Of a DNA stretch of 64,000 bases, positions 6,776-26,093 are shown piece after piece (position 1 is the first letter of the stretch; each line of letters starts with the position of its first letter). Source of the stretch: a virus (lineage: Duplodnaviria; Heunggongvirae; Uroviricota; Caudoviricetes); the IMG/VR virus record IMGVR_UViG_3300033489_000001, positions 318,023-382,022 of that record. The stretch is one strand, 5' to 3'. The translations under genes were made by a program, and so were the position numbers. The notes under the pieces are model-generated. The model had not been told where the DNA came from and searched no databases. It worked only from the letters and a program-made list of their open reading frames with translations.

Positions 6776-6810
6776 TTAATTTGCACTCCGTAAATTTCTA
6801 CTGTAATATA

Positions 6811-6847
6811 CGGAGAAGGTTTTATGCCTTCTCCGTATAATTGAAAC
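6811..6847 (+). CRISPR. solitary CRISPR-like repeat
   Basis: CGGAGAAGGTTTTATGCCTTCTCCGTATAATTGAAAC, 37 nt, perfect hairpin with 3' ATTGAAAC; same architecture as the repeats at 16900-17082. Confidence 0.65.
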
Positions 6848-6858
6848 ACTGTGATATA

Positions 6859-6989
6859 TGCATGAATCCTTCTAAGATTTACAGCTCTTTGAAAAGATAT
6901 GCGGTTCTGAAAGAAAATCTTCTTTTGGATAAAATCTGAAAAGTAAGAGCTGTCAGGGAGAAGGTTTTACCTTCTCTGATAATTGAAAT
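6859..6989 (+). CRISPR. leader-like sequence plus solitary CRISPR-like repeat (6953-6989)
   Basis: Hairpin GAGAAGG-TTTTA-CCTTCTC ending ATTGAAAT; the upstream ~90 bp aligns with 25321-25420. Confidence 0.65.
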
Positions 6990-7001
6990 GATAATTGAAA
7001 T

Positions 7002-7100
7002 GTTGTCATCACCCGTCCGGTGATCATGAAGAACACCATCGCCGCAAAAAAACCAATGGGGAAGAATATAGGAATCAATTAGACCGGTTACTTCGTTCAT
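7002..7100 (-). pseudogene. truncated, frameshifted paralog of the 6290-6775 membrane protein
   Basis: MNEVTGLIDSYILPHW then, after a frameshift, FFAAMVFFMITGRVMTT aligns with MDSLSDFINSDVLPHWPFFSALIFFMVTGQVMVK; breaks off at the CRISPR-like unit. Confidence 0.7.
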
Positions 7101-9952: not shown

Positions 9953-12271
9953 ATGGAAAAATTCATTTTCATCATAACTTTAGTGATTCTTGGGGGTTGC
10001 GGAACGTCTAACCGTTTAGCTTCTCCTATAATAAATGAAGATGGAAGCACGCCGGACGAAGTTGTAACCGGTGACGCCTTTAATACATCAGATGGCGAAG
10101 TTTCCGAAGCGGCCGTCAACAAAGACGTAGAGGTTGTTGAAGCGGACCAGGATGCCGAGCCAAAAGATGCGGGCCAAGACTCAAGCTCCACGGATAGTCA
10201 AGTTTCTGACGCTGATGTAAAAGACGGCAGTCAAAATGTTGACAGCTCGGTCCAAGATTCAAGCTCCCTGGACGCTAATCAAGATTCAAGCTCCACGGAT
10301 GCTGGCCAAGACTCAACCACGCCGGACGCTAATCAAGATGCGGGTCAAGATGCCGCTCCAGTGTGCGTCCCGACCTGCTCGGGCCTTGTACCTCAGACTT
10401 GCAATGCTAACGGAAACCTCGTAAATGGCTCGCCTTGCCCTTATCTTTGTGCCGTTGGTTCTTGCATTGGCATTTGCACTCCTAATGATACTCAGTGCTC
10501 GGGCCTAAATTCGCAGACTTGTAACGCGGCCGGGCAATGGGTAACTAGCCAAACTTGCCCTTATACATGTTCGGGCGCTGGAGTTTGCAGTGGGAGTTGT
10601 GAAACCAATGCTACTCGATGTGACGGTAACAACTCTAAGACTTGTAACAGCTCGGGCCAATGGGAAACCACAGAAACTTGTCTTTACGTCTGTTCCGGGG
10701 CTGGAATTTGCTCAGGCTCATGTGTACCACAAACTACGCAATGCTCCGGTAATTACAATAATACCCCTCAGACGTGTGATGCTACCGGAAACTGGGTCTC
10801 AGGCACCACTTGTCCTTACGCTTGTATAAATGGGAGTTGTTACGGATCTTGTTTCTACGGAGCTACGCGCTGCTCGGGTAATGATTCTCAAACCTGTGGC
10901 TACGATATGCAATGGCATACCGATCATACATGCCCTTACGTTTGTAAAAATGGTGGGACTTGTTCCGGTAGTTGCGTTCCAGGGTCAAAACAGTGCAACG
11001 GAAACACCACTCAGACTTGTGACTCAACCGGTACTTGGCAGAATGTCTCAACTTGCCAGTTTATGTGCTCTAGCGGCTCTTGCACGGGCGTTTGCGTCCC
11101 CGGCAATACAATGTGCTCAGGGACTCAAATCCAGACTTGTAATGCCTCTGGGCAATGGAATACGGCTTCTAACTGTGCGGCGGTAGCCGGTGCCACTTCC
11201 TATTGCTCGAATGGGGCTTGTGAGTTCAACTGCAACCTCGATTACGATGACTGCGATGGCCTTCCCGGTAATGGTTGTGAGGTTAACCTAAATACGGACA
11301 AAGACAACTGCGGTCAATGCGAGCATAGTTGCTGCGGCGGGACTTGCGAGAATGGGAATTGTGGGATGTATGACACTGGGATTAATCCTGACAATACAGC
11401 CTATGATGTAGACTCAAACAACATTTACTGGTCTACGTCTACGGAACTCAACCAACGCCCACGTACCGGTGGTTCAACCACTGTGTTGGAAACAAATCAG
11501 CCTACAATCAAAGGTGTCACGGTGTCCGGGTCCAATGTGATTTGGAGTTGTGTAGGAACGAACCAAATCAATGGCGGCATCTTTTCTGAGCCAGTTGGCG
11601 GCGGAACGATGACCACTTATACTACGGAAGGTGACAAAGACTATATAACTGCTACAGCTAACGATATCTTCTATACGAGAGCCGACAAAGCAAGTGTTGA
11701 GTACGTTTCAAGGACGAGTAACTCTACGGGTGTGCTCCTTGGTAACACGCTTCCGGATGGCACTCCGGCTAACTTGACCTATGCCATTCCGTTTGTCTCG
11801 GACGGAACATACCTTTACACGAGTTATTCTAGCTATCCGACCGGCCAAAAGCCTATCGTGAAAGTTCCGGTGCATGGCGGCCAGATTACGACTTTTGCTA
11901 CTCCTACGACGCCGGGCTACTATCCTAATGGCCTCTCAATTGATAGCATCAATCTATACTATGTCCTTATCACTATCAATGGCTCAACAACTACTATGAC
12001 AGTTCAAAAACAACCTCTTGCCGGTGGCCCTGCTTCTTCCTTGACCCCGTCCAACTCGCAACTTGGAATATCTACAGCCACCGATGGAACTAATGTCTAC
12101 TATAGCACAAATAAGGCCATTCTAAAAGTTTCCACTAGTGGTAATACCCCTATTACGATTGCCACACTAAGCAGCACTACAACTATAAAAAACATCAAAG
12201 TCTCGAATCAATGTGTGTATTGGTATAACAGCTCGACCAGCACAATCCAAGCGGTAGCTGTCAATCCTTGA
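9953..12271 (+). CDS. Cys-rich repeat lipoprotein with C-terminal beta-propeller-like domain (myxobacterial style)
   Basis: RBS AAGGAG; lipobox LGGC; D/S-rich linker; ~42-aa C..CSG..QTC...G.W.....C repeats; DCDG...NGCE...D..NCG.C motif; D...(I/V)Y(W/Y) propeller blades. Confidence 0.8.
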   Translation: MEKFIFIITLVILGGCGTSNRLASPIINEDGSTPDEVVTGDAFNTSDGEVSEAAVNKDVEVVEADQDAEPKDAGQDSSSTDSQVSDADVKDGSQNVDSSVQDSSSLDANQDSSSTDAGQDSTTPDANQDAGQDAAPVCVPTCSGLVPQTCNANGNLVNGSPCPYLCAVGSCIGICTPNDTQCSGLNSQTCNAAGQWVTSQTCPYTCSGAGVCSGSCETNATRCDGNNSKTCNSSGQWETTETCLYVCSGAGICSGSCVPQTTQCSGNYNNTPQTCDATGNWVSGTTCPYACINGSCYGSCFYGATRCSGNDSQTCGYDMQWHTDHTCPYVCKNGGTCSGSCVPGSKQCNGNTTQTCDSTGTWQNVSTCQFMCSSGSCTGVCVPGNTMCSGTQIQTCNASGQWNTASNCAAVAGATSYCSNGACEFNCNLDYDDCDGLPGNGCEVNLNTDKDNCGQCEHSCCGGTCENGNCGMYDTGINPDNTAYDVDSNNIYWSTSTELNQRPRTGGSTTVLETNQPTIKGVTVSGSNVIWSCVGTNQINGGIFSEPVGGGTMTTYTTEGDKDYITATANDIFYTRADKASVEYVSRTSNSTGVLLGNTLPDGTPANLTYAIPFVSDGTYLYTSYSSYPTGQKPIVKVPVHGGQITTFATPTTPGYYPNGLSIDSINLYYVLITINGSTTTMTVQKQPLAGGPASSLTPSNSQLGISTATDGTNVYYSTNKAILKVSTSGNTPITIATLSSTTTIKNIKVSNQCVYWYNSSTSTIQAVAVNP
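10176..10359 (+). repeat. 27-bp coding tandem repeat (QDSSxxDAx)
   Basis: CAAGA(T/C)TCAAGCTCC units recur at 27-nt spacing. Confidence 0.7.
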
Positions 12272-13283
12272 CGTTAGGGACGCTAATTGAAAGCACATCG
12301 GGGATTTCAGCGAACTGTGGTATCTCTTGATCTAAGCGTTTCATGAAAACTTTCCAATTAGGTGCGTACTTCATAATCAACACTACTTTATCAAGATGAT
12401 GCCGCAGCCTTGATTGACCTGTGGTATCTGTTAGGCGCTGAAAAAGTCGATGTACTAAATTTCCTGATTCATCTCGAGGGGTCAGGCGACGAAGCTCAGC
12501 GAGGACTCCAGGTGCTAGCCGTTTGTAAACAATATTATTGGTCCAATGACCTATTACTTGTGGTTTCCCGTTTGAGGAATCGTTGTATTCCCAATTGTTT
12601 AAACGATAAATTTGCTGATAGAACTCCGGAGGAAATGTTCTAATCCAAGGGCGAAGTTCTTTAGCCACAAACGCCTCCAAAATTACAGTAAGTTCGTCAC
12701 GAGGTCGAAATTTTTGATAACCTGTGGCCTCATCAACTAAAGCAATAATGCCAACCGTAGCAAAACCATGTTGTAGTATCCGGCATCGTTCGGCAAGATG
12801 CTTTTGTTGGGATGCTAGCTTGCCCCTCATTCCCGCCTCGATAATGACATTACATATATCGGGGAGTATTGTTGCTTCATACCCATAAGCAATCTGCCCA
12901 TGAGGCGGAATAAATCTAATGGGAGAATCGCCGCGCGAATCTAAGTCTTTGATATCTATTCCTTTTTTACTCAAACGACCCATTAAAGTGACAACTCTCC
13001 GCGCACCCTTTTCACCACCACTGGTTGAAAGCCCAATCCCTACCTGAAGCCCTCTTTGAGAAAGCACTCGACGACCGTCCTCAAGGACATAGCAGGGGAT
13101 CTCAATAGTCCCTATGCGTAGGGGTCGATCAGGGGCTCCATATTTTGCTATCGCAGGGGGTTCCTTACCACTCCCAACCCATCGAGTTAGAGCGGCTTTG
13201 CTGGCAATTTCTGCTCGTCTCTCTGGTGTGAGATTACGGGCACGAGCTAAACCTCCAGATGATTTTTCAGCTATTGTAGGCAT
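12261..13283 (-). CDS. P63C-domain protein
   Basis: GGLARARNLTPERRAEIASKAALTRW N-terminus; IPCYVLEDGRRVLS; GIIALVDEATGYQ; W.RTFP.EFY; IVY.RLAPGVL.EL. Confidence 0.85.
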   Translation of the reverse strand: MPTIAEKSSGGLARARNLTPERRAEIASKAALTRWVGSGKEPPAIAKYGAPDRPLRIGTIEIPCYVLEDGRRVLSQRGLQVGIGLSTSGGEKGARRVVTLMGRLSKKGIDIKDLDSRGDSPIRFIPPHGQIAYGYEATILPDICNVIIEAGMRGKLASQQKHLAERCRILQHGFATVGIIALVDEATGYQKFRPRDELTVILEAFVAKELRPWIRTFPPEFYQQIYRLNNWEYNDSSNGKPQVIGHWTNNIVYKRLAPGVLAELRRLTPRDESGNLVHRLFQRLTDTTGQSRLRHHLDKVVLIMKYAPNWKVFMKRLDQEIPQFAEIPDVLSISVPNVKD

Positions 13284-13383
13284 ATATTCTCCTCCTTAGT
13301 TGTAGAGAAAACATGTATACAACATGCTTTGAGAGAAGGCAACAAAAAAAATGCTTACTTTGAGGGAAAGCAAGATAAATTAT

Positions 13384-13411
13384 TTGACAGATACCTTTCT
13401 GATGGTAAAAT
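13384..13411 (+). promoter_or_regulatory. sigma70-type promoter
   Basis: TTGACA-16 bp-TAAAAT with extended TGn; ATG 9 nt downstream. Confidence 0.7.
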
Positions 13412-13419
13412 GAGGTAAA

Positions 13420-13629
13420 ATGAAAGACTTCCCGCTTGAACAATGGTTTGATTTAACTAAGAAAATCAGTAAAGACGATGTAACTGACTGCTTATCTCAA
13501 ATGATGCTTTATGCTTACAAAGATGGTTCAAAGCTTAAGGGTAAAGAATGGCAAGAGACTAAAAGAGAATTACGTCAAGCAGTCAAGATCCATAACTGTT
13601 CTTTGTACCTTAAAAATCATAACTCATGA
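13420..13629 (+). CDS. hypothetical protein
   Basis: Follows a strong promoter; ATGA overlap with the next gene. Confidence 0.6.
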   Translation: MKDFPLEQWFDLTKKISKDDVTDCLSQMMLYAYKDGSKLKGKEWQETKRELRQAVKIHNCSLYLKNHNS

Positions 13630-14207
13630 AACAACCCAACAAACTTACGGCTCAACAAGTGGCTGAACGCTTCCAAAAACAAGCCATGCCCACAATCTTC
13701 TACCGGCTTACGGAAGAGATTTGCTGGGGGTTCTTTTCAGATGAACATCAACGAATGCATCTTCAAACCGTAGACTTAGAACATAAGACCAACAAGACCA
13801 AGATCCATGTATGGCTTGAAAATCTAGGCACACGCATATTTGAAGTTGCTCAATGCCCGAACGATCCTAAGTGCAAACAAGCGGTAAAAGACCTTCGGCA
13901 TAAACTCACTACAGAACGAGATGAAGTTGAAATTAAATGGACCGATCTAATGATCGAAAAGAACTGGATCAAAGCTGATTTACAAGGGAACCTTGTAGTA
14001 GTTACAGCCTACCCAAGGAGCAATACTAAGTTCACACGAACCGTGGACTTATGGCAAGAAGCTCCGGGCATGATGACGGACATAAAGCCAGGTGATCTCA
14101 AACAAAAAAATGTAAAGATTAAACGAGATATGGGGTCTTTGTCTGTGAGCGCTCTAGGTAGAGAGTTTGTAGATATCCGTTTAGATCATTTACTGTGGAT
14201 AGACTAA
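13626..14207 (+). CDS. DUF4160-related protein with N-terminal leader peptide
   Basis: MPTIF...FFSDEHQRMHLQ resembles the DUF4160 (E/D)H.P.H.H pattern; paralog of 14816-15310. Confidence 0.5.
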   Translation: MKQPNKLTAQQVAERFQKQAMPTIFYRLTEEICWGFFSDEHQRMHLQTVDLEHKTNKTKIHVWLENLGTRIFEVAQCPNDPKCKQAVKDLRHKLTTERDEVEIKWTDLMIEKNWIKADLQGNLVVVTAYPRSNTKFTRTVDLWQEAPGMMTDIKPGDLKQKNVKIKRDMGSLSVSALGREFVDIRLDHLLWID

Positions 14208-14224
14208 GTGGAAATGCCTACCAC

Positions 14225-14797
14225 ATGAAGCAATCTAACAAAATCGTCGCTAAATCTCTACTACGAATCATCGATGCTAAACCTTTAAAAGGCTTTGTAG
14301 TAGAGGCTCACCTTACAGATGGATCTATTCGAACTATAGACGTTACCTCTCTTCTTCAAGGTTATGGCCCTTTGCTCAAAGAGGTGCGCGAAAATCAAAA
14401 ACTATTTCGCCAAGTAAAAGCTGACCACGGAACCTTGACCTGGCCTAACGGCTTAGATTTCTGTCCGGACGTACTTCTAGAAACTAAAGTATTTCTTCAA
14501 GCTCGCCGAGTTTTAGCAAAATATTTCAAACAAGCTGCACCCCTTATTTGCAAATTTGAAGGGGCATCTGTTTATATCAATTCTGGGGATCACCCTCCAT
14601 TGCACGTTCATGTTAAAAAAGCTGAAGCTGATGCTTCGGTGGAAATCCTTACAGGAAAAATCATTGCCGGATCATTGCCGGTCTCACTAGAAAAAACGGC
14701 TAAAAGATGGCTGAAAAAACAACAGGCAGCCGTCCTAAGAGCCTATGCTCAAGTTCAGGCTGGACAATTACCTGATAAGGTACCGCCTCCAGATTAG
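14225..14797 (+). CDS. DUF2442-DUF4160 fusion (toxin-antitoxin-like); start probably MKQSNK at 14225
   Basis: N-half: TDGSIRTIDV...FRQVK..HGTLTWPNGLDFCPDVL (DUF2442). C-half: PLICKFEG...DHPPLHVHVK...I.TG.IIAG.LP...W (DUF4160). Confidence 0.8.
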   Translation: MKQSNKIVAKSLLRIIDAKPLKGFVVEAHLTDGSIRTIDVTSLLQGYGPLLKEVRENQKLFRQVKADHGTLTWPNGLDFCPDVLLETKVFLQARRVLAKYFKQAAPLICKFEGASVYINSGDHPPLHVHVKKAEADASVEILTGKIIAGSLPVSLEKTAKRWLKKQQAAVLRAYAQVQAGQLPDKVPPPD

Positions 14798-14815
14798 GCA
14801 AAAAACGAAATTAAA

Positions 14816-15310
14816 ATGATAATAAAGGACATTCCTAAAGGGCATAGTTGGGTCTTTATCACGTGTGGAAAAGATCAAAGAATGTGTCTTCAAAAAATTC
14901 CTCTTTATTCCAAGATTAAAGTCTGGCTTGAGGATTCTCACGGAAGACGAATTTTTAAGCCTGAAGGAAAGATATTGGCTAAAGTCTTGAAGGCTATTCA
15001 AGCTAAAGTAACTGCCGATCATCGAAAGATTGAGAGTGAATGGGTCAGAGTTATGATAGGTAAAGGCTGGCTTAAATTAAAATTAGAAGGCAGAGGGGTT
15101 AGAAGAAAAGCCATCTTGATAGCTTATCCTGATTCAGATCATTCTTTCAAACGTACCATAGAGTTGTCGGAATGGGGACCGCCTGAGACCTACGCAACTC
15201 GGCATGATGTAAAACTAGATATTGAAAATGCGGCGCTTATCTTAGATGCACAAAGAAGTGAGGATCGACAAATCTATCTAAGTCTGCCTAAAATCTTGTG
15301 GGTTGAGTAA
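14816..15310 (+). CDS. paralog of 13626-14207
   Basis: Shared QRM.LQ, KI.VWLE..G.RIF, E..W...MI.K.W.K..L.G, AYP....F.RT..L and terminal LW.(D/E). Confidence 0.7.
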   Translation: MIIKDIPKGHSWVFITCGKDQRMCLQKIPLYSKIKVWLEDSHGRRIFKPEGKILAKVLKAIQAKVTADHRKIESEWVRVMIGKGWLKLKLEGRGVRRKAILIAYPDSDHSFKRTIELSEWGPPETYATRHDVKLDIENAALILDAQRSEDRQIYLSLPKILWVE

Positions 15311-15341
15311 ACAGCACGGTTCAAGCGGTAGCGGTCAATCC

Positions 15342-15369
15342 TTGACCGGTATTTTCCCGATGGTAAGCT
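15342..15369 (+). promoter_or_regulatory. sigma70-type promoter
   Basis: TTGACC-16 bp-TAAGCT with TGn; spacer ends in GATGG as at 13384. Confidence 0.55.
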
Positions 15370-15372
15370 AAA

Positions 15373-15747
15373 ATGATTATGCCAAAGAAACCTACAGCCC
15401 AACAAGTTACCGCTCGATTCCAACTAGAAGCTATGGCTAGCCTGCGGCCTCAGACAACCGGAATTGAAGGAGCTGTTGTTTGGGTATCAGTCGGTGAGTT
15501 TGCCGGTTCTGAAGCACAACACGGGCCGAGAATCAAAGTTGTAGTGGGTAGCAAACTCACGTCCGAAAGCCTAAAAAATTCCGTAACCGTAACTCTCACA
15601 AAACCTCCAAAATTAATCGGGACGTTACCGGGAAAAATCAAAAAACAAATTTTAGAATTTGTAGAAAAAAATCGTGAAGCTTTGCTCCAACACTGGAATG
15701 CCGAAATCGATTCTATAGAGCTAGGTAGACAATTGAAAAAAGTATAA
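15373..15747 (+). CDS. DUF4160-like phage protein with leader peptide
   Basis: MASLRPQTTG...VWVS...HGPRIKV...FVEKNREALLQHWN, similar to the DUF4160 C-terminal N...L...W pattern. Confidence 0.6.
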   Translation: MIMPKKPTAQQVTARFQLEAMASLRPQTTGIEGAVVWVSVGEFAGSEAQHGPRIKVVVGSKLTSESLKNSVTVTLTKPPKLIGTLPGKIKKQILEFVEKNREALLQHWNAEIDSIELGRQLKKV

Positions 15748-15809
15748 AGCAACAGCTCAACCAGCACTATCCAAGCCGTGGCTGTGAGTCCATAACTCTA
15801 ACTTCCCCG

Positions 15810-15841
15810 AAAAGGTCAGGGATTAAGTCCTTGACCTTTTT
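15810..15841. terminator. bidirectional intrinsic terminator
   Basis: AAAAGGTCAGGGA-TTAAG-TCCTTGACCTTTTT hairpin with A and T tracts. Confidence 0.7.
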
Positions 15842-15866
15842 ACTTTTAACCAATGGAACACTGACT

Positions 15867-16300
15867 GTGCCTACTTTTCGCGAGATAAATGCTATAAACA
15901 TATTTGGTAGACTTGTTACGGTTTTAGAGATTCTAGATGATAATCATCAACCGGTTGGTGACGCTGAATTGAGCTTTGACGACTCAAAAATTGCTGTACT
16001 TGAAGATTTTTATATACGCCGGGCTCATCGTGGAAAACCCCATAATTACGGCAGAGCACTTCTAAAGGAGATCCTCGGGAGGGTTCAACGTCAAGGGGCA
16101 ACTATTTTACGTTGTCATCCCCGCACTTATGAACGGCGTTATGATGAACGGCGTGGTGCCCCCAAATTTTTAATTGTACTAAGAAAATGCCAGAAGCTAA
16201 ATTAATAGAATGGTATGCATCTCAAGGTTTCAGAGAAATTGATCAGGACTCAGATGAATTTCAGCAACATTGTTTAAGACTCTGCATAGCGTTAAGATGA
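15867..16300 (+). pseudogene. frameshifted GNAT acetyltransferase, paralog of 17163-17600
   Basis: ILDDNHQPVG.AELS and RAHRG..YG..LL are shared; the C-terminus PEAKLIEWYASQGF continues in the -1 frame after ~16170. Confidence 0.8.
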
Positions 16301-16314
16301 TGAGAGCAACTTAG

Positions 16315-16833
16315 TTACGCAACCATTTTTCCAGTAAAGAACTCGAATTTGGTTGGTAACTGTCTAATACAATCATTAAAATCATTAGTAGCGAACGTCG
16401 CCCGTTCTAAACACGGCTCTAGAGGAACGTTTGAACAACCTAAACCCATATCCCCCATCTGCCGTTGAAACCACCCATAGAAGCGCAAACCTTCTAAAAT
16501 ACCAAGCTTGTCAGCATACTTGGTCAGCCTCTTCATTTGATCCTCAATAGGGGCACACCAACCCTTCAATCTCTCTGGACCATCTGGGGTTTTTTCAAAC
16601 CCATCGAATTTAAACATGGGGAAATTGAACTCAGTTTTAGTTGGCGTCTCTATTAATTTTATTTCATTATTGGTGAAGCCTGAGGCCAAAACCAAGCCGA
16701 TCTCTGTGGCCTTAAAAAATGGGCGGCCATCACGTATCCACCGCCAACTTATTGGGATAGTATCAATAGTTGAAATTGCCTTAATCGTGTAAGTTTCAGG
16801 TTCTGCTTTAATTGGATTTGAACTTTGTTGCAT
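16315..16833 (-). CDS. hypothetical protein, paralog of 17578-18111
   Basis: Shared IPISW.W, ATE..LVLASG...NEIKLIE, LRFYG.F.R.MG.M.LGCSN.PL. Confidence 0.75.
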   Translation of the reverse strand: MQQSSNPIKAEPETYTIKAISTIDTIPISWRWIRDGRPFFKATEIGLVLASGFTNNEIKLIETPTKTEFNFPMFKFDGFEKTPDGPERLKGWCAPIEDQMKRLTKYADKLGILEGLRFYGWFQRQMGDMGLGCSNVPLEPCLERATFATNDFNDCIRQLPTKFEFFTGKMVA

Positions 16834-16899
16834 AGATGCCTCTTACACCAGCAAACATAGAAAAAGATCCTCTCGGTATTCATTCCGTGTACTCGACCG

Positions 16900-17082
16900 G
16901 TGAAAAGAACTAGAGGGAGGTTTTAGCTCCCTCTAGAAAATACCAAGGAGAGTTGACCCCCATCGTAGTCCAGTTTCAATTACAGAGGGATTTTTTTAGC
17001 TCCCTCTAGCCTTGCGAATTTGTCGTGCATTAGCATCGCCGTAGTGTTTCAATTACAGAAGGAGTTCTAGTTCCCTCTACAG
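16900..17082 (-). CRISPR. CRISPR mini-array: 3 divergent 37-bp repeats and 2 x 36-bp spacers, no cas in window
   Basis: Repeats at 17046-17082, 16973-17009 and 16900-16936 (exact 73-bp period); minus-strand repeat CTAGAGGGAGCTAAAAAAATCCCTCTGTAATTGAAAC; last repeat degenerate at its 3' end. Confidence 0.8.
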
Positions 17083-17128
17083 AGAGCTTACTTTTTAATT
17101 GCAACAACGGCAACAACTTAAATGATGA

Positions 17129-17156
17129 TTGACCTAAAATTATTAGGCTTTACATT
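17129..17156 (+). promoter_or_regulatory. sigma70-type promoter, probably leaderless GNAT transcript
   Basis: TTGACC-16 bp-TACATT, ATG 7 nt downstream. Confidence 0.55.
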
Positions 17157-17162
17157 TGGCCT

Positions 17163-17600
17163 ATGCCTTCTTTCCTTATAGAAGAGGTAAAAAAATCTGG
17201 TAGGCTTGTTGCTAGCATAAAAATCCTGGATGATAACCACCAACCAGTGGGCAATGCGGAATTGAGTCTTATCAACCCAAATACTGCCAGGCTTGATGAT
17301 ATTTACATATACCGGGCTCATCGCGGAAATAGCTATGGCGTTGAACTTCTAAAGAAGACTCTTGAAGAAGCAAGACGGCAGGGAGCTACTATTTTACGTT
17401 GTCACCCAAGCCCCTACGAATATGGACCTAATGAGTTGAAGGATAAAAGAACACTCCCTAGTCGCACGCCACAAGCCAAGTTAATAACGTGGTACGTGGC
17501 TCAAGGATTTAAAGAGCTTAACCTTAAACTAGAACAAGATCGTGATGAATTTGAACGATATTCTTGCAAACTTTACATTATGCTGAACTCGACCACTTGA
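17163..17600 (+). CDS. GNAT-family acetyltransferase
   Basis: LDDIYIYRAHRGNSYGVELL acetyl-CoA motif A; WYVAQGF. Confidence 0.85.
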   Translation: MPSFLIEEVKKSGRLVASIKILDDNHQPVGNAELSLINPNTARLDDIYIYRAHRGNSYGVELLKKTLEEARRQGATILRCHPSPYEYGPNELKDKRTLPSRTPQAKLITWYVAQGFKELNLKLEQDRDEFERYSCKLYIMLNSTT

Positions 17601-18111
17601 AGCTTTTTGGCAGCTTTTCTACAAACTCAAATGAGTCAAAGGTGAGCGGATTGGAACCTAAAGGAATATTTGAACAGCCTAAACTCATAAGCCCCATATG
17701 ACGCGCAAAAACCCCGTAAAACCGTAAACTTTCAAACATACCCAACCTAATTGCATATTGCACTAAGGTTTTCACCCGATCCTCAATAGCGTGCCAGGCT
17801 TCGGATTCTTCTATATCTGCTTTGGGTAACCAGGTTCCAGATTTCTCCACGCCCTCCTTAAATAATTCCGTTTCAAACATAGAGAGTCTAACCTCTTTTT
17901 GGACTTGGCCTTCGATTAGTTTTATTTCGTTACTAGCATATCCTGAAGCCAAAACGAGGTTATTTTCTGTCGCGCTAAAGACAGGAAAACCATTGGTCAT
18001 CCACCACCAACTTATTGGGATAATTATAGGGTCAGGAATGACATTTAGATATTCACTCATAGAGGCAAGAGAAACAGATCCCTTAGAATAAAGTTCTGTG
18101 TTCGTATCCAT
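17578..18111 (-). CDS. hypothetical protein, paralog of 16315-16833 (start MDTNTE at 18111)
   Basis: Paralogy; ATG immediately after the upstream stop. Confidence 0.7.
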   Translation of the reverse strand: MDTNTELYSKGSVSLASMSEYLNVIPDPIIIPISWWWMTNGFPVFSATENNLVLASGYASNEIKLIEGQVQKEVRLSMFETELFKEGVEKSGTWLPKADIEESEAWHAIEDRVKTLVQYAIRLGMFESLRFYGVFARHMGLMSLGCSNIPLGSNPLTFDSFEFVEKLPKSFKWSSSA

Positions 18112-18112
18112 T

Positions 18113-21100
18113 TTAGCTTCTCTTAGACAACGTAATAGTTGAAGGATCAATAGTTAGGCGAACGTTGTTTCTAACAAGTGGGTGGCCCTCTATTCTAGCT
18201 AGATCAGCGGCAGAGTAACCTTCATTCTTTCCGTTCGTCCCTATGGCTATATCCCCTGGAATCGGGGTTCCAACGGTAGGACGAACTACGTTGGTTATGA
18301 CTAGCATCATCAACTCATCCCCCGCAGAGACTTCAGTAGCGCCTACATTCGTTGGAGCGTTTCTAACAAGCATGGCTCTACCCATTAGAACGTTGGTGTG
18401 ATTATCAGAAGGTAGAAGGGACTGGCCTTGAAGTGAAATTTCGCCGCCTGGATGGGGTCCATTTCCAACAAAAACAGAACCGCCTCTGTTCACTCTGAAA
18501 TTAGTTAGAAGTGAGTAATTTCCTTGTTCACCATCAACATGAACAAGCACGTCTCCAGGGGAAACAACACCAGAGGATGCCGTGTCCAAAGGCATCTCAT
18601 CTTGTTCCATGTGGTTGACAGCTAAGCCCGTGGAATGGCCTGCCGCAACGTCGTTTGAAAACACTAACGGCGATTGAGTGATCCCAAATAGTTGACCTTT
18701 AAGATCTGAATCGCGAAAAAGTGCTCCCAAGGGAAGGACATCGCTTCCATGATATTCTGTTCCAATATCCGTTAGATTATAAGAGGAGAAAGTGTTTGGC
18801 AAAGACAACGGACGATCATCGTAACTATGAGCGGGCGGATAATTAGTTGGGTCCGCGAAAGCTACGTCCATAAAATGTAGTGGAGAAATAGAACCATCAC
18901 CCGCAAACCGACCAGTGCCTAATGTAGTTGCGAAAGAAGTAGAGGCTAAAACCTCTACCACTTTTTGGTTAGGTCGAGTAAGTGCAGCTTGATTCAATTG
19001 CGTATGAGAAAGTTGATATGCATCGCCGGATAGAAGAGGACCGGGTTTATAACCAGTATCTGCGTAGGATGTCTGTGAGCCCCAAGCATCGCCTTGATAC
19101 GAACTACGACTATGATTAATTACTACCTGGTCAGAGGATTGAGCCGGGCCGGGAAGAACAGCGGAAGGACCGGCTACGTACTTGTTGATGTTGTTATGAC
19201 GCCCGGTAATGGAAGTTTGATCTACCGGGCCGCCTTTAACCGATGACCAACTGTTTGAAAGAACACCCGATGGTTGCGTCATTACCAATCGGGCTTCTGA
19301 GTTAAGGTCAAACGTTCCACGATCAAAACCGAAGATAGAAGCTTCAATCACATAATTTCCTGACGCAAAAGAAGCTATTGGATTTGGAGAACGAGCAATA
19401 TCAATAGCATTTGCGTTTAGAATAAATGTGGAGTCCCCATCATCATCAATTTCTATCCACATAACTGGACCGTCTGATTGAGTCATGTTCTGGCGCAAGA
19501 GATTCGTGGCCCCTCCAGTAATAGGTGCTCTTGTACCTGCATCAAAAGCTGACCCTCCGTTTGGACCGGATGTAGTAAAGTAATTGGTAGCTTCATATAC
19601 AGCGAATAAACGAGCAACTCCGTAGAAAGGTGGTAATTCTAACCCTTGTCGGCCAAGACTTCTGGTGTCCGTGAAGAAACGCATCCCTGCATAATTATTA
19701 CTGTATATTGTTAGGGCCGCATTGTAAATCGCCGGTAGTGCCGTGGTGGGATCTATAGTTGTAAAAGCCGCGTAGGTACGAACCGAGCTTGGATTGTAAT
19801 TTACATAATTCTTGTCAGCGTCTCCGTAACTACTCCCACTTTTACTATCGGTAACAAAATTGATGCCTTGTGAAAAGACGGAACCAACGTCATTGGGTAG
19901 AATAGGAAGACGCAATTCGCCCCAACCGGGCACTAGATGGCGTGGAAGACTTACGTAGATACTACTATAAGCATCATTAGAAGCAGTTGTGCCACAGAAT
20001 AAACCCAGAGGATCGGTGGTTGTCCATTTAGCAGTAGTGCCATCTCGTTCATTAAGGGGCATCACACCCTGTGCTTGGTGTACCGCAAAAGTGACCGAAG
20101 TACTACCTTTAGCCTTAATCGGACGATCAACAGTAATTGAGGTAGAAGGTGTGATGCCAATAACAGTGTATCGACCAGCTCCAGGACCACTGGTAATAAC
20201 TACAGCGTCTCGTAATGCCGTAGTCCCTACACTCCCCACCGTTATAACAGGGGAGTTATCTGTACCTATAGTACCCGTCGTGGGGGCTCCAGCCTTAACC
20301 GCCGTGTAGGGATTAGCTGCCATCCCATCTATAGTAAGTAAACCGATTCCTGCATCATTGGGGAAATTGATTCTACGGAAAGGCGTCAATATGATAGATT
20401 TACTTCCGAGATCCGCATAAACCTCAGAGGTTACTGGGAGTAAATTATTAAAAGCGGCGCTTCTAAATTTGCTCCACAAAGGAGCCCAACTCACTCGTGA
20501 ACCTTGGTTGCTAGAAGGAATCCCTGATTGTTGGACAAGTAACTCGGCTGAAGGATTGATATAAGAAACTGAGTGAAGTGAATTCGGCCGCCTTGATAAC
20601 CCACGCCCCGCCCCATAAACTGCATGAAGTGTGATGTGAAGGATAGTTGGGGTCGCAGTCAAAGAGGTTTGCGTTGGGAAAGTGCCGCCGAAAGTAATGA
20701 CCAAATCATCTGATGGGGTTGGAACCGCCGGAGTCACTGTATACATTGTGGGAGGGATGGGGTCGGTCTCCCCGTCAAACCTAAGACTTACCGCACCAAC
20801 CACACTATCATTTAACCACCTTACTTGGTCAGTATCGCCTCCAGGAAGTCCATGCTGCAAATTCGAAACTGGGACGGAAATCACGTCACCACTTGCAAAG
20901 ACATCCCCAGTCACTTGGTTCGTCGTCTTAACCGTGAACCCTAAGCTCCATCCCACATTTATATCAGCCGTCCCCGGAGGGGTAACTGTAGAGCCATGTG
21001 GTTTTACAATGCACTCAATTGGCTGCACCACAGCGGCATCAGAGAACACCATACGGATGTTGTCAGGAGCGTCAAGCTTAGTCACCCCAAGGGCTACGGC

Positions 21101-25320: not shown

Positions 25321-25457
25321 GCAAGTCCTTTTTAAGGTTTTGAATTCTTTGAGAAAAGGTAAGCGGTTCTAAGAGATAGTCTTCTTTTAGGTAAAACCTG
25401 AAAAGCAAAAGGATTGACTGCCTAGGGAGGACTCTAAGTTCCTCCTGTAATTGAAAC
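25321..25457 (+). CRISPR. leader-like sequence plus solitary CRISPR-like repeat (25421-25457)
   Basis: CCTAGGGAGGACTCTAAGTTCCTCCTGTAATTGAAAC; the upstream sequence aligns with 6859-6950. Confidence 0.65.
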
Positions 25458-25466
25458 TAATTGAAA

Positions 25467-26093
25467 CTATAAGTAAAGCAATGCCCAAGATCCTAAATAT
25501 ATCCGCTTTCCAGAGGTATTTTGAAAACGAATGATAAAAGAAGTTCCTTGATCAGGGACGGGAATATTGAGAACTTCACCGTTAAGTACTGTGTTATAAG
25601 TACTACCTCCATTAAAACTGATCCCACAAACTAAATTGACTCCCGTTTCTTCAACATAGGTTCTCTGAAATCTATCAGCTTTGTCATCTGAATCTGTAAA
25701 TATGTATTCTTCCCAAACCAACACGCATTGAGTGGGAGCAAATCCAAGTACATGGGATACTGAAAAGCATAATCCTGCATCGAGGAGGAAAGCATTTACC
25801 CAACCTGAAGTAACGATAATTCCCGTAGTTCCAGATGCAGCCAGATTAAAACTAGCCCCACCCATACAGGTATCGGCAAGGATATCCGTAAAACCGGCAT
25901 AAGAAGCTAACAACCCATCATATTTGGCCGTCAATAAATCGGTAATATTAGTTGGATTGTTGTGTATAGCCACACCATCAGGAACGCGGATAACCGTTGA
26001 TCCTGTGGCTTCTGATTGACCAGTTTCTGCTGTAAGGACATCAGTAATGTCTCCAGCAGTTGTGAACGGATCTATTAAATAATGTATCGACAA
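25467..26093 (-). CDS. virion structural protein (original start displaced by an IS remnant)
   Basis: ISFNGGSTY...FIIRF..YLGSWALLY C-terminus; TTG start lies within the element end. Confidence 0.6.
   Translation of the reverse strand: MSIHYLIDPFTTAGDITDVLTAETGQSEATGSTVIRVPDGVAIHNNPTNITDLLTAKYDGLLASYAGFTDILADTCMGGASFNLAASGTTGIIVTSGWVNAFLLDAGLCFSVSHVLGFAPTQCVLVWEEYIFTDSDDKADRFQRTYVEETGVNLVCGISFNGGSTYNTVLNGEVLNIPVPDQGTSFIIRFQNTSGKRIYLGSWALLYL

Follow-up and report, generated by a model that had tools for sequence, protein, structure and literature searches.

It was asked whether three short repeats in the genome of a huge phage form a CRISPR array of their own and, if so, which Cas proteins such an array would serve. 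The analyzed window is a stretch of 64,000 nucleotides, corresponding to bases 318,023-382,022 of a 411,618-bp IMG/VR virus record that has direct terminal repeats and is rated complete. At window positions 16900-17082, the minus strand carries a two-spacer CRISPR mini-array composed of three related repeats of ~37 nt and two spacers of ~36 nt, following one another on the plus strand in the order repeat, spacer, repeat, spacer, repeat (Table 1). The original prediction had described a two-spacer mini-array here, and the repeats and both minus-strand spacers that it quoted were confirmed in place. The exact 37/36/37/36/37 spacing that it gave has the right coordinates but is slightly idealised, being partly set by where the boundaries are drawn. 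When repeats 1 and 2 are put in register, the distance from tail to tail is 73 nt, and the 5' halves of the stems are 71 and 73 nt apart because the loop of repeat 1 is 2 nt shorter.

Table 1. Features of the mini-array and its neighborhood (window positions) and the cas genes of the main CRISPR locus (genome positions).
Feature	Position	Strand	Description
Leader-like end before repeat 1	17083..17102	minus	A-rich motif; upstream sequences compared by eye
Repeat 1	17046..17082 (in register 17046-17080)	minus	7-bp stem with one G-U pair, 8-nt loop, intact 11-nt tail ending ATTGAAAC
Spacer 1	17010..17045	minus	36 nt as originally parsed; 38 nt in the 35-nt repeat frame
Repeat 2	16973..17009	minus	2-nt overhang, 7-bp stem, 10-nt loop, 11-nt tail; best copy
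Spacer 2	16937..16972	minus	36 nt as first drawn; 38 nt in the 35-nt repeat frame
Repeat 3, terminal	16900..16936	minus	Hairpin kept and extended to 10 bp; T-rich run in place of the tail
GNAT acetyltransferase, module copy A	15831..16205	plus	Pfam PF00583, E 8e-5
Partner gene, module copy A	16315..16833	minus	172 aa, orphan; start 66 nt downstream of repeat 3
GNAT acetyltransferase, module copy B	17163..17600	plus	Pfam PF00583, E 1.1e-8; divergent from the array
Partner gene, module copy B	17578..18150	minus	190 aa, orphan; overlaps the end of the 1455-aa tail-fibre-like gene
cas5c	genome 199,981-200,691	same as main array (minus)	NCBIfam, Pfam and PADLOC matches
cas8c	genome 198,280-199,980	same as main array (minus)	NCBIfam, Pfam and PADLOC matches
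cas7	genome 197,232-198,167	same as main array (minus)	NCBIfam, Pfam and PADLOC matches

The repeats differ from one another, as had been predicted. According to repeat finding, a 16-mer is exact in repeats 2 and 3 (lower coordinates) and 81% conserved in repeat 1, and a second repeated block, which includes the tail, is common to repeats 1 and 2 (higher coordinates). The tails of repeats 1 and 2 match at 11 of 11 positions, while the loops and flanks have drifted. In canonical I-C repeats (PMC8524198), a 2-nt overhang is followed by a stem of ~7 bp and then by an 11-nt 3' tail, which ends in ATTGAAAC/T. Repeats 1 and 2 both show this layout, with a stem of exactly 7 bp and the tail ending in ATTGAAAC. 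Their predicted folds have energies of -9.1 kcal/mol (repeat 1) and -11.6 kcal/mol (repeat 2, z -4.2). Unique spacers of near-constant length thus lie between direct repeats with a period of 73/73 nt, which is the arrangement of a CRISPR array; the two spacers are unrelated beyond chance to each other and to every spacer of the main array of this phage. An Rfam search gave nothing relevant, and the repeat variant common to repeats 2 and 3 has no other occurrence in IMG/VR.

The main array was located by scanning the phage genome for an 8-nt part of the tail. This yielded 118 sites, most of them in one minus-strand block at ~189,000-193,650 with a hairpin before each site. The block (L003:527-5126, minus strand) was parsed into ~63-65 repeats with a period of mostly 67-75 nt (mode 72-73 nt) and a median spacer of 37 nt. 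The five cas-proximal repeats are identical, and the others occur in several stem variants, in which compensatory changes have preserved the pairing: in an alignment of 53 main-array repeats, a 9-bp stem is 95% paired, and both sides change in seven of the nine pairs. Six repeats carry a tandem copy of the 11-nt tail. Such heterogeneity is odd for an array without Cas1/Cas2 and suggests that the repeats came together from different sources or have drifted for long while the structure was constrained. Tandem duplication of the tail (10-12 nt) is also seen at window positions 6977-7002 and 25448-25469.

A covariance model, R1, was trained on the main-array repeats alone, with the mini-array left out, and was run on the 64-kb window with the filters off. 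On the minus strand, it found repeat 2 with 26.9 bits (E 2.5e-5) and repeat 1 with 22.3 bits (E 5e-4), and a chance origin of the likeness between the two arrays is excluded. Repeat 3 was missed by the model because its tail is absent. Across the phage genome outside the main array, R1 gave about a dozen matches, and the mini-array is the only site there with two matches less than 100 nt apart on one strand. In the frame of a 35-nt repeat, both mini-array spacers are 38 nt long and the period of 73 nt equals the main-array mode. The model matches, together with the shared period and spacer length, therefore place the mini-array in the family of repeats for which the phage itself has the Cascade genes, and at the level of the genome it is not an orphan array. 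The minus orientation that had been proposed for it is backed by the lost tail of the last repeat, by the strand of the model matches and by the tail of the mini-array repeats, which is the same as that of the main array, itself located downstream of the cas genes on their strand. The plus-strand orientation was considered and rejected, since the model matches, the tail and the logic of the terminal repeat all favor the minus strand.

The main CRISPR locus occupies genome positions 189,027-200,691, ~141 kb from the mini-array. Immediately upstream of the main array, on the same strand, the genes are arranged in the order Cas5c, Cas8c, Cas7, a 771-aa helicase and a 256-aa protein, and the cognate effector genes of an I-C array (cas5c, cas8c and cas7) are therefore present in the same genome as the mini-array. 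The helicase (ResIII/DEAD) belongs to SF2 and is not Cas3; a sequence search gave no solved relative for it. Cas1, the Cas3 core and Cas6 were all not found in the phage genome, and a search for the HD domain returned one weak sub-threshold match away from the cas locus. The set of adaptation genes and Cas3 nuclease-helicase was thus not recovered, the adaptation-gene search having covered Cas1. With no Cas1 or Cas3 core and a non-Cas3 helicase, the locus is assigned to the reduced phage variant and not to canonical I-C. When the phage Cas5c was aligned to the D. vulgaris Cas5c structures, the invariant Lys was found to be kept and two of the three catalytic positions to be replaced (Met at the position before Trp51 and Phe for His, in the D. 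vulgaris reference), which counts against processing. According to the paper on S. mutans Cas5c, the two replaced triad positions vary among active enzymes.

A similar system has been described before. In Al-Shayeb et al. (2020, Nature, PMC7162821), the huge-phage type I-C variant is presented as having no Cas1/Cas2, a helicase in place of Cas3 and a Cas5d-like protein with an altered proposed active site. The present system is alike in being Cas6-less, in having Cas8c and Cas7, a helicase replacing Cas3, no Cas1 found and a Cas5d/Cas5c-like protein with altered active-site residues, and in being carried by a phage genome of several hundred kb. The arrays described there (PMC7162821) are compact and lie beside the cas genes, whereas here a main array of ~65 repeats is accompanied by a satellite 141 kb off and by about ten solitary repeats. 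Judging by these sequence features, the locus is a small I-C-class CRISPR array tied to a reduced phage I-C system of an already described kind.

Taken with the anatomy and the kinship described above, these data favor the reading that the stretch is a satellite CRISPR array of the phage's own reduced type I-C system, to which a probability of about 0.6 is assigned. Against it count the rather weak match of repeat 1 to the family, the failure to find in the phage genome a Cas3 nuclease for the interference step, the lack of a consensus promoter on the minus strand, and the negative outcome of the protospacer searches in all collections.

The terminal repeat bears on how such an array would end. 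Repeat 3 has a predicted fold of -16.4 kcal/mol (z -4.3) and is the top terminator-like site of the region, with 10 pairs, of which 6 are G-C, and T at 5 of 8 positions. It departs from repeat 2 exactly past the 3' half of the stem, and its stem has three additional base pairs. In type I arrays, the tail of a repeat turns into the 5' handle of the spacer that follows, and the last repeat therefore requires a hairpin alone. Maturation in vivo has been described for crRNA-like RNAs of I-C systems that begin with a repeat and have just a hairpin at the 3' end (bioRxiv 10.1101/2024.12.27.630466). Since a hairpin would suffice for the last repeat and such hairpin-ended RNAs mature, repeat 3 is read in both roles: it looks like the 3' hairpin of the second crRNA and, at the same time, like an intrinsic terminator.

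As for the start of transcription, the last ~16 bases before repeat 1 resemble the bases that precede the main array and the solitary repeat at window position 6956, and an A-rich hexamer upstream of repeat 1 sits where these two have a -10-like hexamer. A scan of the minus strand at the mini-array for sigma-70 consensus promoters found none, and it is therefore only by inference that we take the mini-array to be transcribed. The conserved leader of ~60 nt that precedes four solitary repeats is absent from it. Alternatively, transcripts of the 1455-aa tail-fibre-like gene and of the copy B partner gene, which lie on the same strand, may run on into the mini-array. It may be speculated that read-through past repeat 3 would couple the array to the 172-aa partner gene of copy A, because this gene starts 66 nt beyond repeat 3 on the same strand and has its own ribosome-binding site.

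Under the satellite-array reading, transcription of the minus strand would either start at the weak leader just before repeat 1 or continue into the array from the tail-fibre-like operon. Cas5c would cut repeats 1 and 2 at the stem's 3' base, so that each spacer would bear an 11-nt 5' handle and end in the hairpin of the following repeat. Repeat 3, with no spacer after it, would need no handle; its hairpin and T-run would stop the transcript and give the second crRNA its 3' hairpin. The two crRNAs would enter a Cas5c-Cas8c-Cas7 Cascade and steer it to DNA outside this phage, either that of another phage or that of the host, where the adjacent helicase would act or Cascade would just block transcription.

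The original prediction had also put the mini-array at the junction of a duplicated module. The duplication proved to be real, and the array lies in the 329-nt gap between the copies. The module consists of a GNAT acetyltransferase and a convergent orphan protein and is present in two diverged copies, with 56% protein identity between the GNAT copies A and B and ~43% between the partner genes. The possibility that the array was itself part of the duplicated unit was rejected, since the corresponding place upstream of copy A contains no remnant of an array. For the orphan partner protein, IMG/VR yielded no relatives and the protein atlas gave no information. An accessory island can be delimited at window positions 12261-18150, containing a P63C-domain gene, a DUF2442-DUF4160 fusion, the two GNAT-plus-orphan modules and the mini-array.

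Four relatives were retrieved through the 1455-aa neighbor gene (53-69% protein identity in this gene). The mini-array, the GNAT modules and the island as a whole were not found beside the 1455-aa gene in any of the four, and repeats of the mini-array family were not found in the loci of these relatives. Two of the relatives, L007 and L008, have homologues of the 161-aa and the 1455-aa flanking genes, with no island separating them. This absence from the retrieved relatives also counts against a satellite array.

Sequences matching the spacers were sought in several collections. A blastn-short comparison of both spacers with the phage's own genome found no match beyond chance. In a seed scan of this genome (positions 6, 12 and 18 ignored, no more than 3 mismatches per 15), the two mini-array spacers had 2 and 3 matches against 7.4 and 9.1 for shuffled guides, and none of the matches was local. 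The mini-array therefore has no self-targets, which agrees with the earlier impression that neither spacer has an obvious match within the window. Seed matches being fewer than for shuffled guides, the scan argues against autoregulation of the CreA/crlRNA type inside the phage.

Outside this genome, both spacers gave no match in INPHARED (cultured phages) or PLSDB (plasmids). A BLAST comparison of the mini-array with five other huge-phage records matched the repeats alone, in one 323-kb phage, and revealed no protospacer. Nor was there a match to either spacer in IMG/VR, the JGI metagenome contigs or the GTDB species genomes (exact pattern with N at every sixth position), or to the 3' halves of both spacers in an exact scan of IMG/VR. 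No protospacer was thus found in any of these collections, and the originally proposed targeting of competing phages or host genes is still a conjecture; the collection scans demand an exact match over 20-25 specified bases, which misses diverged targets, and mask records near-identical to this genome, and the negative result is therefore weak. The spacers of the main array likewise have no significant match, either in INPHARED or among five other phage records, of which four are distant relatives and the fifth is an unrelated fragment that bears an array.

These results can be taken to mean that the locus is a decaying relic, that is, a fragment of an older array which recombined into the accessory island and provides no working guides. 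The relic explanation agrees with the divergence of the repeats from each other and from the main consensus, the lost tail of repeat 3, the missing adaptation module that would renew the arrays (Cas1 search), the lack of targets found and of a clear promoter, and the island missing in the relatives. Nevertheless, it appears unlikely. The two tails needed for two guides are identical at all 11 positions amid drifted loops and flanks, the change in the stem of repeat 1 preserves pairing through a G-U pair, and the tail was lost solely in the repeat that does not need one, which gained a stronger stem and a T-run. In addition, heterogeneous repeats are the norm in the main array too.

Besides the main array and the mini-array, the phage genome contains about ten solitary repeats, three of which were found by R1 on the plus strand of the window (25424-25457, 6956-6989 and 6811-6847). 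Four solitary repeats are preceded by a conserved leader of ~60 nt, which contains a -10-like hexamer and, internally, an inverted repeat; they are those at window positions 6956-6989 (plus) and 25424-25457 (plus) and at genome positions 139075 (plus) and 218448 (minus). These four are candidates for promoter-driven crRNA-like RNAs or for decoys of the Racr type. The solitary repeat at window 6811-6847 has near-identical 11-nt direct repeats on both sides (window 6800-6858), which resembles a target-site duplication.

In two cases, the sequence following a solitary repeat has a match nearby. The sequence after the repeat at 218448 (genome 218,441-218,730, minus strand; L067:4941-5230) has a counterpart on that strand, 279 nt upstream, which differs at 1 of 15 seed positions and has a TTT motif at the PAM position; this could be a cis target in the style of crlRNAs or a local duplication. 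After the repeat at genome position 140787, the next 36 nt (140,795-140,830, plus) are identical at 26 of 36 positions to an inverted site 300 nt away (141,070-141,105, minus). The inverted site looks like coding sequence (locus L005), and it is possible that the repeat provides a guide against a paralogous gene or is followed by a gene fragment.

The solitary repeats lend some substance to a regulatory explanation, in which the mini-array encodes a pair of crRNA-like RNAs of the crlRNA/CreA type that recognize promoters by partial complementarity and repress them without cleavage, a role that would suit a Cascade devoid of Cas3. Repeat-like units are known to be used in this way by I-C systems (bioRxiv 10.1101/2024.12.27.630466), the system has no Cas3 nuclease, the ~ten solitary repeats were counted as promoter-preceded, and the one at 218448 has the seed match with a T-rich PAM mentioned above. 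The locus itself does not behave accordingly: the whole-genome seed scan gave 2-3 matches against 7-9 for shuffled guides, with none near the locus, and in length and period both spacers are ordinary. With fewer seed matches in the phage than for shuffled guides, any regulated promoter would have to be in the host. Such a regulatory pair is considered very unlikely. The mini-array does share with I-C crlRNAs and with CreA of CreTA the degenerate repeat, the 11-nt 5' handle and a 3' hairpin that can fall short of a full repeat (bioRxiv 10.1101/2024.12.27.630466). However, crlRNA and CreA guides have a PAM-flanked match of 10-16 bp to a promoter in cis (bioRxiv 10.1101/2024.12.27.630466), whereas the seed scan found no cis promoter match for the mini-array spacers in this genome.

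The hairpins could also act without any guiding, as an RNA anti-CRISPR decoy that soaks up the Cas proteins of a host I-C system. The tail ending ATTGAAAC is common to I-C repeats generally, and host proteins could therefore bind it. Although phage-encoded solitary repeats, I-C ones included, act as such Racrs (Camara-Wilpert et al. 2023, PMC10651486), with which the mini-array shares its character of a phage-encoded repeat mimic, and the same tail also ends the arrays of two other phage records, the decoy explanation is highly improbable, since Racrs are solitary and have no canonical spacers, whereas the locus has two regular spacers at exactly the main-array period, the phage's own matching Cascade would be titrated too, and no acr homologue was recognized near the mini-array, the neighbors being GNAT acetyltransferases and orphan proteins.

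The satellite-array reading can be extended to the genome as a whole. In this distinctly unlikely but broader version, a single I-C Cascade devoid of Cas1/2/3 would serve a distributed network of CRISPR RNAs made up of the main array, a satellite with two hard-wired guides expressed on the late schedule of the tail-fibre operon, which would differ from that of the main array, and the ~ten promoter-equipped solitary repeats. The two satellite guides would silence genes of the host or of a competitor by binding and not by cutting, and remodelling would have turned the terminal repeat of the satellite into a crRNA 3' hairpin that is also a terminator.

A comparable dispersal of arrays was noted in a second phage. 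In the record IMGVR_UViG_3300037722_000745 (323 kb, 68% complete), arrays occur in several separate places (loci L017, L028, L033 and L051-L058); their 11-nt tail is the same, and their stem is similar and likewise G-rich. An R1 search of this phage gave nothing at E 0.01, and no Cas7 homologue was found in the recovered 68% of the record. As this record is multi-locus too, arrays spread over several loci may be common in huge phages of this sort.

Virus-borne mini-arrays are reportedly Cas-less, dependent on host Cas proteins and provided with demonstrable targets in closely related viruses. The satellite array proposed here differs from them, as the phage holds cognate Cas genes and no target was found in the four distant relatives or in IMG/VR. 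It is like them in having few spacers and in being carried by a virus, the mini-CRISPR arrays of Medvedeva et al. (2019, PMC6858448) having one or two spacers.

Taken alone and known here from its sequence, the mini-array is a modest addition to the knowledge of phage CRISPR systems. Its significance lies in showing that guides are kept at more than one locus by a huge phage whose type I-C system is reduced and non-adapting, and that a structure-aware model of the main array can tie a small, divergent satellite array, which standard finders would miss, to its Cas genes. If the two guides are made, they would be candidates for fixed-function targeting or repression, and the repeat turned terminator would be a neat example of the engineering of an array end.
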